From: Mycobacterium phage prophiT46-1
Direction: 5' to 3' (one strand)
Sequence record: OQ417976.1
DNA length: 52,874 nt
Each line of letters opens with the position of its first letter. The first letter of the stretch is position 1. The translations under genes and the position numbers were made by a program. This document shows positions 50,053 through 52,602 of the stretch, in pieces. Below the pieces are notes generated by a model. That model worked only from the letters and a program-made list of their open reading frames with translations, was not told the origin of the DNA and did no database searches.

Positions 50053-50460
50053 CTACAGCTCCTCACCGATGTCGGGAAGCAACGCGATATCTTCCGGCGT
50101 CTTATTCCTTCGAAACATACTGGCTGTATCTCGGACACGTCGCTTTCCCCATCCGGGATTTAATCTTTCCATCATCTGATACTCGGAATAGAACAAATCG
50201 GCCCTATTACCCGTGGATCTCGATGCCATACTAAAAACTATGCTATTGCTGTACCAATAAAGAACGTCATCAAGGTCGCCCACCCTGTCAAAGCGCAGCT
50301 GACCTCGCTCGTAGTATGCGTAATGGTAGAAGCCGTTTTCGTCGATGAAAATATTGTAGTCATCGTTCGTCCGGATGACGCCGACAGACAAAGGTTCGAC
50401 ACCTAGCTTTACTGCTATCCGATCTACCTCGGACTGCAATTCCACAGTTTTATCGTCCAA
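50053..50460 (-). CDS. Low-GC small protein downstream of the toxin gene; candidate immunity protein
   Basis: 135 aa. The TTG start at 50460 is preceded by GGGAGG. The coding region is markedly AT-richer than its flanks. It lies immediately 3' of the toxin gene and overlaps it. Confidence 0.5.
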   Translation of the reverse strand: MDDKTVELQSEVDRIAVKLGVEPLSVGVIRTNDDYNIFIDENGFYHYAYYERGQLRFDRVGDLDDVLYWYSNSIVFSMASRSTGNRADLFYSEYQMMERLNPGWGKRRVRDTASMFRRNKTPEDIALLPDIGEEL

Positions 50461-52273
50461 GGGGCGGCCCCTCCCTAGTCAAAATTCCTTCTCTTATTAA
50501 TTCCTCCACAGATGGCTTAACGCCGTCTGGTCCAACGATCATGTATTGGGTTGCTCCGGGTGATGGTGTCTGCCCGTAGAACGGCTGCACGGGTCCTTCA
50601 ACGATCTGCCAGCCTGGGGGCAATGGATGACCAGTGACCATGTAGCGGTTGTAGGCGCCACCTACGGCTTCCGGCGCGAGCGCACGGTCCGTGAATGATG
50701 CGCCATCGGGGGCAAGGTAACGACCCCCTTCATGGCCGAATCTGTCAATGATGGTTCCCGGTGGCAGTTGCGCCGGTTGTGGTGTGTAGCCGGGCGGAAA
50801 TCCGTCATTGCCCGGATAGACACGTGTTTCTGGTGTGCCGTACTGGGTTTCGAAGTCTTTCCATGGAATGCCGCCTGTAGCGTTCCAGTCCTGTAACAAG
50901 GCTCTGGGTGCGCCGCCTTCGGTGATGAGTTCGGCTGGTAGTCCGGCCCTGACAGCGGCGCCCTCGCCACCGAGGATGAGACCGGGTACAGCCTGAGCCG
51001 CTATCGCCGATTGTTCCCCCAGGAAGGCTTTGGGGTTGTCGATAAGTCGGTGGGCGTTGTCGATTCGTTCGGGGCTAATTTCGGTGGGATGGGCTAACTC
51101 GCCGAAACTGTTCTTGAGGCCCGTGCCAGCGTCTCCCCAGGCGTCTTTGAATTCTCCTAGTCCGTTAGCCCCGACCATGTCTTGAACGCCTTTGACGCCC
51201 CTGTCCCAGGAGTTGTGGAACGCCTCGCTGAAGGACTCACGGGCGCGCTCTGGTGGTGGGCCAGGTTCGGGTGTTGCGACCATGGGGCGGTCCTGTTGGG
51301 CTCCCTTGATGGCCTCGGACAGCTTGGCCTCTACCTGATCGGGTGGGTACTGCGTGGACAAGGTGCTGCGGAACTTGTCAATAGCGGCCTTGCCCTGCGG
51401 GGTGTTGGGGTCCAGCTTGGGTGCGGGCATCGTGCGCGCATCTGGTGGTGGTGGCGGCTTGTCCAAAGGGCTTTTGGGCTCGTTAATACCCATCACGCCC
51501 AGGTTTCCCGTCAGACCGCCCAGCCTGCTCGGATCAACGGGCGGCTTGTTGCCAGGAGAGGGCGGACCGAGCACGGGTGCGTGTGGATCGGTGGCGGTAG
51601 CGGCTGCGGCCTGTGTGGTGGCCGGGTCGGTGGCCTTGGGGTACATCTCCTTGTAGTTGACGGTGGTGGCGTTCGGGTCGCCCGCTGTCGGGGCCACAGC
51701 GTCGCGCAGGATCTTGCGGCCATCGACCAGGGCGGTTTTGGGGTTGATGCAGCCGGTGATCTTCTGGGCTATGGCGTCGGCCTGGGCCTTGAGGGTTTGA
51801 CAGCCCTTGTCCCACTGGGCGACATACCCTTTGACTTGGCGCTCAATGTCGGCGACATGTTCGCGGTTTCGGGCTATCGAGTCATCGCTCTCACCCTCGG
51901 CGGGGTGGTAGGCCATGTTGTAGGTCTGGTCGATCGAGACACCCTGGTCCTTGTGCGCCAGCACACTCTCGATGAGACGTTGGCCATTGACCAGGGGCTC
52001 GACCACCTCGTATTGGATGGTGGCCGCAACGAGTTTTCCGCCGTCTTCGGCGGCGTCGTCGGTGTTATCCGAGCCGTGGCAATCGGTGGATGCTGTGTCG
52101 TAGGCGGCGTTCGAGGTGCGCCCGGTCCATTCCGTGCCATTAGGGGCCCCGACCCACCGTTTGTATTCGTCGTAGGTCTCTTTGAACTGCCGGGTTTGCG
52201 GGCGCCAGGTGTCCACCACCGCCATGTAGTCATTGGCCTTCTTGGACATGAACTCATCCAGCGGTGCCACCAC
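50450..52273 (-). CDS. Polymorphic toxin with WxG-containing N-terminal region and C-terminal TNT (tuberculosis necrotizing toxin, NAD+ glycohydrolase, DUF4237)-like domain
   Basis: 607 aa. The N-terminus has YKRWVGAP (W-x-G). The C-terminus (IDRFGHEGGRYLAPDG...YNRYMVTGHPLPPGWQIVEGPVQPFYGQTPSPGATQYM) matches the DRxG...GRYL...Y..Y.V...FGQpGG.QY pattern of TNT domains. A Pro-rich linker is present. Confidence 0.65.
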   Translation of the reverse strand: MVAPLDEFMSKKANDYMAVVDTWRPQTRQFKETYDEYKRWVGAPNGTEWTGRTSNAAYDTASTDCHGSDNTDDAAEDGGKLVAATIQYEVVEPLVNGQRLIESVLAHKDQGVSIDQTYNMAYHPAEGESDDSIARNREHVADIERQVKGYVAQWDKGCQTLKAQADAIAQKITGCINPKTALVDGRKILRDAVAPTAGDPNATTVNYKEMYPKATDPATTQAAAATATDPHAPVLGPPSPGNKPPVDPSRLGGLTGNLGVMGINEPKSPLDKPPPPPDARTMPAPKLDPNTPQGKAAIDKFRSTLSTQYPPDQVEAKLSEAIKGAQQDRPMVATPEPGPPPERARESFSEAFHNSWDRGVKGVQDMVGANGLGEFKDAWGDAGTGLKNSFGELAHPTEISPERIDNAHRLIDNPKAFLGEQSAIAAQAVPGLILGGEGAAVRAGLPAELITEGGAPRALLQDWNATGGIPWKDFETQYGTPETRVYPGNDGFPPGYTPQPAQLPPGTIIDRFGHEGGRYLAPDGASFTDRALAPEAVGGAYNRYMVTGHPLPPGWQIVEGPVQPFYGQTPSPGATQYMIVGPDGVKPSVEELIREGILTREGPPLGR

Positions 52274-52281
52274 GAGTGCCC

Positions 52282-52602
52282 CTATACCCGCTTAGCTGTC
52301 TGATAGATGCTGGGCAGATTGCCGTACCCGGCCGCCAATGAACTCTCCGTGATCGCGAAAGCCTGCTGGGCCTCATCGGCGAAATCAGCGATCGCATTCA
52401 GCCGCGCGGCCCCGATCCGCTTCACATCGGCGATAGCCCTCGATACCCCATACAGCGCGGCCAACCCCGGATCAGCACCCGCCGGGGCCGCAACACTAGC
52501 CGCCGTGCTCTGCGTGAGTTGGTCGGCGAGCGTGCGTAGATGCGGGCCGAGCTTGCCCAACGCCGCAAGATCAACCTTGAGAACGTTCTCATCGCCCGAC
52601 AC
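52282..52602 (-). CDS. Small helical ESX-secretion-associated-like helper protein (Esx-like, ~100 aa) upstream of the toxin gene
   Basis: 106 aa, 8 nt upstream of the toxin start. This arrangement mirrors the esxE/esxF-cpnT-ift order in M. tuberculosis. There is no Trp; the assignment is positional and compositional. Confidence 0.4.
   Translation of the reverse strand: MSGDENVLKVDLAALGKLGPHLRTLADQLTQSTAASVAAPAGADPGLAALYGVSRAIADVKRIGAARLNAIADFADEAQQAFAITESSLAAGYGNLPSIYQTAKRV

Follow-up and report, generated by a model that had tools for sequence, protein, structure and literature searches.

We analysed the three-gene cassette at the right-hand end of a 52,874-bp stretch of DNA from Mycobacterium phage prophiT46-1 (sequence record OQ417976.1), referred to below in its full length as the window. 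The cassette is very probably a polymorphic toxin-immunity cassette of the PEST1 type ("phage-encoded ESX-secreted toxin") of the integrated Mycobacterium abscessus phage phiT46-1: a leftward operon of the lysogen, in which a small helper and the N-terminus of a large toxin would serve ESX export, the toxin ends in a predicted NAD+ glycohydrolase (NADase) of the TNT family and an Imm63 protein would act as the antidote. An earlier note, drawn from the DNA letters, had proposed a polymorphic toxin with a TNT-like C-terminus, an Esx-like helper and an immunity candidate next to attR, and this reading proved accurate in its essentials. The leftward triad it described was recovered as three successive minus-strand open reading frames (ORFs) at 52282-52602 (106 amino acids), 50450-52273 (607 amino acids) and 50053-50460 (135 amino acids). 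All toxin motifs that it quoted were found as well, namely RWVGAP (residues 39-44), IDRFG (509-513), GRYLAP (517-522), YNRYMV (541-546), FYGQ (565-568) and GATQY (573-577).

The window corresponds to phiT46-1, a phage of cluster MabG, in its integrated state. A 25-bp exact direct repeat, CGGGTTCAATTCCCGGCAGCTCCAC, occupies both of its ends (1-25 and 52850-52874), which shows that the window spans an entire integrated prophage, attL to attR; subtracting one 25-bp core from its length gives the 52,849 bp published for the phiT46-1 genome (PMC7849713). The repeat is similar to the 3' end of tmRNA (weak Rfam tmRNA match, model positions 348-362), in agreement with the published attB-11 in the tmRNA gene, the integration site of cluster MabG prophages including prophiGD21-3 (PMC8092301). 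The helper gene is the first of the cassette and starts 248 bp inside the attR core, which places the cassette beside attR as had been claimed. Exact-sequence look-up identified the toxin as the "glycohydrolase toxin TNT-related protein", the helper as the "ESAT6-like protein" and the adjoining 158-amino-acid protein as an "Uncharacterized protein" of Mycobacterium phage phiT46-1, while a 130-amino-acid reading of the immunity protein is recorded under M. abscessus as an Imm63 family immunity protein. At the DNA level the cassette shares 97.6% identity with prophi58-1 genes 81-83, annotated as "polymorphic toxin immunity protein", [quoted passage not shown] and "WXG motif protein", and the left 25 kb of the window, tyrosine integrase included, matches the same prophage family as prophi58-1. 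The toxin differs from that of prophiGD21-3 by two residues. As the cassette is annotated in GenBank and was described in three papers between 2021 and 2023, of which the phiT46-1 paper reports the polymorphic toxin (PT), Imm63, an ESAT-6-like protein, WXG-100 and TNT (PMC7849713), it is already known and not a discovery of this analysis.

The prediction that the toxin C-terminus is a TNT-fold NAD+ glycohydrolase is supported by profile, model and residue comparisons. The Pfam TNT family (PF14021) matched residues 502-599 (nt 50477-50770) over profile positions 1-86 of 88 with an E-value of 9.9e-19 and 68 bits against a cut-off of 27. A single-sequence phmmer search with the domain returned fungal NADases only (E 3e-6), whereas a profile built from 12 family members reached fungal NADases at about 1e-18 and the M. 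tuberculosis TNT chain 4qlp_B at 1.2e-15; the M. tuberculosis protein is thus accessible through the family profile and not from the single sequence. In the AlphaFold model, residues 490-600 showed predicted local distance difference test (pLDDT) scores of 74-90, and Foldseek placed 4qlp_B as the best match in the PDB (E 4.6e-7, probability 1.00, 33% identity); the next matches were 13 chains of fungal TNT-fold NADases.

Activity of the fungal enzyme AfNADase depends on R129, F137 and Q194, as mutagenesis showed, and its F130 and R148 make contact with the substrate (PMC7955114). The corresponding positions of the phage toxin are occupied by R511 (R129), F512 (F130), Y519 (F137), R530 (R148) and Q576 (Q194), so that the NAD site is complete at all five positions. 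When a family member was aligned to 4QLP, R511, Y519, R530 and Q576 were paired with residues of M. tuberculosis TNT that we take to be R757, Y765, R780 and Q822, a numbering that agrees with the residue count along the 4QLP sequence in the alignment. R511 and Q576 were invariant and R530 nearly invariant in two family alignments, and the position of Y519 was always Y, W or F in the alignment inspected. The catalytic residues that the earlier note had wished to see in an alignment are therefore conserved. Q568 of the FYGQ motif is also conserved, but it corresponds to M. tuberculosis Q816 and is not the catalytic glutamine.

The N-terminal region assigns the cassette to its class. Residues 1-195 of the toxin are 55.4% identical to the PT of the PEST1 archetype prophi_GD43-6 (100% coverage, 193 residues compared, E 8e-67), from which we conclude that the cassette is PEST1. 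Among 117 full-length homologs, G46, W49, G51 and A56 were each present in 117/117, W40 in 98/117 and G42 in only 64/117. A DSSP analysis of the model placed W49-T-G51 (nt 52121-52129, minus strand) within a turn of residues 43-52 with pLDDT below 50, and W40 inside the helix of residues 23-42. Full conservation together with the location in the turn identifies W49-T-G51 as the conserved WXG motif: the toxin N-terminus does carry such a motif, as predicted, but it is not the RWVGAP that had been named. Residues 80-160 were modelled with pLDDT 73-91. A fold search with the toxin N-terminus, where the monomer model is poor, was uninformative, with just BAR-like, coiled-coil and generic elongated helical proteins returned as noise, and a poor monomer model is expected if the domain requires its partner. 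Tyr88 opens a YxxxE sequence (Y88EVVE92, nt 51998-52012, minus strand) and shares its residue number with the first YxxxE ("Y1") of M. tuberculosis CpnT.

Beyond the N-terminal domain, the toxin continues into a linker that is most proline-rich at residues 200-345 and then into a helical pre-toxin region, with pLDDT below 50 for residues 174-286 and 327-469. Next comes a near-invariant GGEGA motif (G435 in 116/117 homologs, G436 in 111/117, E437 in 116/117, A439 in 110/117), directly before the switch to unrelated C-terminal domains. VENN in CdiA and PxxxxDPxGL in Rhs are motifs to which it can be likened, and GGEGA may be a demarcation or recombination motif. After residue 440, identity to the reference dropped from 0.63 to about 0.3. 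The homologs keep residues 1-440, the N-terminal ~74% of the protein, and exchange what follows: besides TNT we found Tox-REase-5, GH-E/HNH, glutamine deamidase, EndoNS2 and colicin-DNase domains, and in the family loci of M. abscessus the gene downstream of the toxin varies with the toxin C-terminus. A conserved N-terminal trafficking region, alternative C-termini and matching immunity genes are the marks of a polymorphic toxin system (Zhang et al. 2012), and the label of polymorphic toxin given to this gene from the outset is appropriate.

The public labels of the helper are "WXG motif protein" and "ESAT6-like", yet it contains no tryptophan. The AlphaFold2 (AF2) model (pLDDT 86.6) shows helices at residues 2-33 and 45-94, a helix-turn-helix hairpin of about 100 residues, and Foldseek ranked PE25 of the PE25-PPE41 complex first, then EsxA, GBS1074 and EspB, none of them significantly. 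The "Esx-like" description of the helper thus holds for its helical hairpin and not for its sequence signature, and its best structural matches are to PE25. Of the features of WXG100 proteins it has the size and fold of the hairpin; it lacks the W-x-G in the turn, and no Pfam family matched it at E-values up to 1, PF06013 (WXG100) and related models included. Its sole family match was phrog_18870, which has no assigned function (E 1e-42). An alignment of 25 family members revealed no conserved tryptophan; what does not vary is the turn, APAGADPGLAAL, and the tail, LPSIYQ, Y100 included. This tail might be a part of the export signal that pairs with W49-x-G51 of the toxin. The idea that the helper is a paralogue of the N-terminal hairpin of the toxin was rejected (hhalign probability 0.1).

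The third gene had been put forward as the immunity candidate, a proposal supported by its family and by its gene neighbourhood. Pfam Imm63 (PF15599) matched residues 43-112 with 36.8 bits (cut-off 26.7), and the motifs YERG, LYWY and LLPDIGE are invariant in homologs. A search of the PDB with the Imm63 protein of the window gave no match beyond noise, and hence none to IFT, the antidote in 4QLP. Imm63 was listed among the immunity partners of Ntox40, a toxin family with the motif "DRxxG, R, Y" (Zhang et al. 2012), and the TNT domain of the window agrees with this motif. The gene probably starts at the TTG at 50460, which yields the 135-amino-acid reading and an 11-nt overlap with the toxin end; this reading is favoured by a Shine-Dalgarno (SD)-like GGGAGGGG 7 nt upstream and by the conservation in Imm63 homologs of residues upstream of the alternative start, a GTG at 50445 (130 amino acids) that is used in the prophi58-1 record and in several genome annotations. 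The G+C content over the gene (50000-50600) is 0.47-0.51, compared with about 0.64 for the prophage, and suggests a module with a history unlike that of the rest of the element.

Covariation of the immunity gene with the toxin was assessed in reference genomes, in which a scan for relatives of the TNT domain yielded 37 loci; these comprised the sub-type of the window and a few distant ones, and no M. tuberculosis locus was among them. Loci of other mycobacteria that carry the TNT sub-type of the window (62-80% identity) and whose downstream sequence is intact had an Imm63 homolog (50-64% identity) after the toxin in 30/30 cases; in 29 of these it overlapped or abutted the toxin stop codon, as in the window. 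No Imm63 homolog was present at the six loci with distant TNT sub-types. In the M. abscessus family, unrelated proteins of 188 and 163 amino acids follow two other TNT sub-types, and a 248-amino-acid protein follows a Tox-REase-5 toxin; neither the 188- nor the 163-amino-acid protein matched a PDB entry, IFT included, and the latter showed just a sub-threshold Imm61 match. In other mycobacteria the same TNT and Imm63 unit is joined to N-terminal domains of at least three kinds, all of them with a WxG at residues 46-49, and two of these domains gave sub-threshold WXG100 matches. The TNT sub-type with an overlapping Imm63 gene was seen in about 30 other mycobacterial species, among them M. gordonae, M. 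simulans, M. shimoidei, M. asiaticum and Mycolicibacter spp. (loci L011-L040), far beyond the M. abscessus-chelonae complex, the reported limit of prophage PEST cassettes. In addition, a 191-amino-acid protein of M. abscessus (P0154), 61% identical to the Imm63 protein of the window, has its Imm63 domain fused to Bro-N (PF02498).

These features suggest how the cassette could work. In the lysogen, the operon would be transcribed leftward from the attR-proximal region, as RNA sequencing showed lysogenic expression of related cassettes (PMC8092301). The helper, a PE25-like hairpin, would pair with the toxin N-terminal domain, which bears the invariant W49-x-G51 turn, and the resulting PE/PPE-like helical bundle may be recognised by a type VII system of the host, ESX-4 or ESX-3. 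The long proline-rich linker would connect this delivery domain to the C-terminal TNT domain, whose intact NAD site predicts NADase activity. Translation of Imm63 is presumably coupled to that of the toxin through the 11-nt overlap, and Imm63 would bind and block the TNT domain in the producer until export, as gene-neighbour covariation and the analogy with TNT and IFT suggest. The exported toxin would then deplete the NAD+ of a target cell, either a host phagocyte or a competing bacterium. The authors who defined PEST systems considered virulence, bacterial competition and phage defence all possible and none of them directly supported (PMC10654092).

Several observations weigh against this interpretation. 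Residue N542 stands at the position of M. tuberculosis H792, and H792N is presumably one of the two substitutions of a non-toxic TNT double mutant; natural homologs have N, H, T or F in this column. Pfam WXG100 did not match the toxin N-terminus, and residues 40-68 around the WXG turn were modelled with pLDDT below 50 in the monomer. As a family export motif Y88xxxE92 was rejected, since D or E occupies position 92 in only 48/117 homologs. The helper has neither a WXG nor a YxxxD/E motif, and its Foldseek matches to type VII substrates had E-values of 0.38 or worse. Upstream of the helper, no sigma-70-type promoter site was found, nor a SigM -35 core on the sense strand. Toxicity of PEST in M. 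smegmatis transformation tests was relieved by the imm gene for two cassettes, but these published tests used cassettes with toxin domains other than TNT, and ESX-dependent export of a PEST system still awaits demonstration (PMC10654092).

That last point leaves room for an intracellular role, in which the toxin is not exported and the cassette serves phage defence: superinfection would free the TNT domain from Imm63, and depletion of NAD+ would kill the lysogen. NAD+ depletion is a recurrent antiphage strategy. The position of the cassette by the integration junction and the lysogenic expression of its relatives are properties of prophage defence genes according to the authors of the PEST study (PMC10654092). 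However, an abortive infection effector has no need of an N-terminus of about 440 residues with an invariant WXG turn, a hairpin partner and a proline-rich linker, and these features are conserved across toxins with unrelated C-termini. The TNT and Imm63 unit of the 30 other mycobacterial loci is likewise fused to a WXG-bearing N-terminus, as found in 9/9 complete toxin ORFs inspected. We consider this explanation improbable.

Even less probable, and largely refuted, is the proposal of the earlier note that the cassette copies the esxE/esxF-cpnT-ift layout of M. tuberculosis; taken literally, it would make the helper a pore-forming WXG100 protein of EsxE/EsxF type, the toxin an outer-membrane protein of CpnT type and the antidote IFT-like. 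The likeness is real in that both the esxF-esxE-cpnT-ift operon (TNT/IFT, 4QLP) and the cassette have a small helical gene upstream and an immunity gene downstream of a type VII-linked toxin with a TNT-fold NADase at its C-terminus; M. tuberculosis TNT is the best structural match of the phage domain, its R757, Y765, R780 and Q822 have conserved equivalents there, and Y88 coincides with the Y1 position of CpnT. The M. tuberculosis operon, however, encodes two WXG100 pore formers, EsxE and EsxF, whose WXG motifs are both essential for TNT secretion (PMC7810871), whereas the cassette encodes one tryptophan-less helper, and in place of IFT it has Imm63, which resembles no PDB chain. CpnT-like architecture, with two upstream WXG100 genes and an N-terminal double-WXG domain of about 300 residues, was assigned to PEST3 (PMC10654092), and this description sets it apart from the PEST1-type N-terminus of the phage toxin with its one conserved WXG. 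Export of CpnT requires ESX-4 (PMC8593097), and M. abscessus has a separate chromosomal, SigM-regulated esxF-esxE-cpnT homolog of its own, Mab_3112-3115 (PMC13491425), while the phage cassette is prophage-borne, adjoins attR and has no SigM-type -35 element upstream. The resemblance to the CpnT operon is functional, and the cassette is not a copy of it.

Equally hard to sustain is a simple addiction module, a toxin and antitoxin that stabilise the prophage and have no extracellular role. The toxin and antidote genes are tightly coupled, with overlapping stop and start codons, and loss of imm was lethal for related cassettes (PMC10654092); but the N-terminal architecture would be as superfluous here as in abortive infection, and the families of Imm63 and of the C-terminal domains are polymorphic-toxin families catalogued with secretion-linked N-termini (Zhang et al. 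2012). Least likely of all is a relic cassette with a degenerate, inactive TNT domain, for which the asparagine at the H792 position could be cited: the equivalents of the residues required in AfNADase and M. tuberculosis TNT are all present, the ORF is intact, the exact 607-amino-acid protein occurs in 248 blocks of the collection, and the cognate immunity gene is kept in 30/30 loci, which argues for a live toxin.

With an exported PEST1-type toxin as the preferred reading, the comparisons refine the public annotation at three points: the WXG of the toxin is W49-x-G51, the helper labelled as a WXG motif or ESAT6-like protein lacks tryptophan, and the upstream TTG is the probable start of the immunity gene. 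Three further details go beyond the published annotation and are possibly new, although we regard them as doubtful. Imm63 could represent a second, IFT-unrelated way to silence TNT-fold NADases, one that accompanies the present TNT sub-type in 30 mycobacterial species or more; the LPSIYQ of the tryptophan-less helper could be a non-canonical export signal that complements W49-x-G51 in a composite signal of PE/PPE type; and the role of the cassette could be interbacterial or antiphage and not host-directed. M. abscessus is a difficult pathogen, and a prophage-encoded toxin that destroys NAD+ and is related to the principal cytotoxin of M. tuberculosis could plausibly contribute to virulence or fitness, a role for which the Hatfull laboratory had already highlighted such cassettes.

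The features of the cassette and its att sites are compiled in the table. In the region between the helper gene and attR, a -10-like TAGTCT lies 40 nt before the helper start, and a perfect palindrome with 7-bp arms, TGTTGAC-GTG-GTCAACA, occupies positions 52742-52758; it could be a site for a regulator, for Xis or for the integrase (arm type), or a product of chance. Co-regulation of the cassette with ESX-4 by SigM was considered and dropped, because the SigM -35 element GGAACCG occurs in the window at chance frequency (268 observed, 261 expected) and does not occur on the sense strand between the helper gene and attR. On the far side of the cassette, a gene for 158 amino acids (49571-50047, plus strand; longer ORF reading from 49493) converges on the end of the Imm63 gene and is missing from the otherwise 97.6%-identical region of prophi58-1. 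Its product matched no Pfam, PHROGs or NCBIfam entry and gave no tblastn match in the phage collection; just 9 relatives at E<=1e-3 were found among 1.84 billion representatives. Next to it, a leftward ORF of 72 amino acids (49332-49550, minus strand), a homolog of prophi58-1 gene 80 with no family match, stands alone between rightward genes and ends in a terminator-like stem-loop (hairpin 49324-49341) followed by a T-run.

Table. Positions of the cassette features and attachment cores in the 52,874-bp window.
Feature	Position	Strand	Basis
attL common core, partner of attR	1..25	.	exact direct repeat
Imm63-family immunity gene	50053..50460	-	Pfam; SD-like site; covariation; G+C content
Toxin residues 440-607 and stop, predicted TNT (Ntox40) NAD+ glycohydrolase module	50450..50956	-	Pfam; profile; Foldseek; residue mapping
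Toxin near-invariant motif G435-G-E-G-A439	50957..50971	-	conservation in 117 homologs
Toxin residues 196-434, proline-rich low-confidence linker, then helical pre-toxin region	50972..51688	-	proline counts; pLDDT; conservation profile
Toxin residues 1-195, N-terminal helical delivery domain of PEST1 type	51689..52273	-	117-homolog conservation; model; identity to PEST1 archetype
Helper, 106-amino-acid two-helix hairpin protein, annotated "ESAT6-like" / "WXG motif protein"	52282..52602	-	ORF; phrog_18870; AF2; Foldseek
Non-coding region between attR and helper gene, presumed lysogenic promoter region	52603..52849	-	repeats; RNA sequencing of related cassettes
attR common core (25 bp)	52850..52874	.	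exact direct repeat; weak Rfam tmRNA match; MabG attB-11 (PMC8092301)

Among known systems, the closest solved sequences to the phage TNT domain are those of the fungal surface NADases (AfNADase, PDB 6YGE), which share with it the NAD site of R, F, aromatic residue, R and Q. Unlike the phage toxin, these enzymes are glycosylated dimers with a thumb domain and a Ca-binding motif; they travel by the secretory pathway and lack an immunity protein. For the delivery end, the counterpart is PE25/PPE41 (PDB 2G38, 4W4L), in which a small hairpin without WXG pairs with a partner that has one, as the helper would with the toxin N-terminus. PE25 is the best structural match of the helper; there is no sequence homology between them and the Foldseek E-values are not significant, the helper has the invariant LPSIYQ tail instead of the YxxxD/E of PE proteins, and no EspG chaperone is encoded nearby.

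A 2023 paper in mSystems named such cassettes PEST, divided them into PEST1, PEST2 and PEST3, and modelled the PEST1 helper and toxin N-terminus with AlphaFold as a PE25/PPE41-like heterodimer (PMC10654092), with which the PE25-like helper described here agrees. The PEST1 archetype prophiGD43A-6 is likewise a three-gene cassette of helper, PT and Imm at a prophage attachment junction (PMC10654092). It differs in its toxin domain, which is ill-defined and Ntox15-like where the present one is TNT, and in its immunity protein, here Imm63; toxicity and immunity were tested on the archetype. The PT-Imm cassette of phiT46-1 and prophiGD21-3 (Amarh et al. 2021, PMC7849713; Dedrick et al. 2021, PMC8092301) is the same element as the one analysed here: it differs in nothing substantive, and genome length, att site and gene order all agree with the window.

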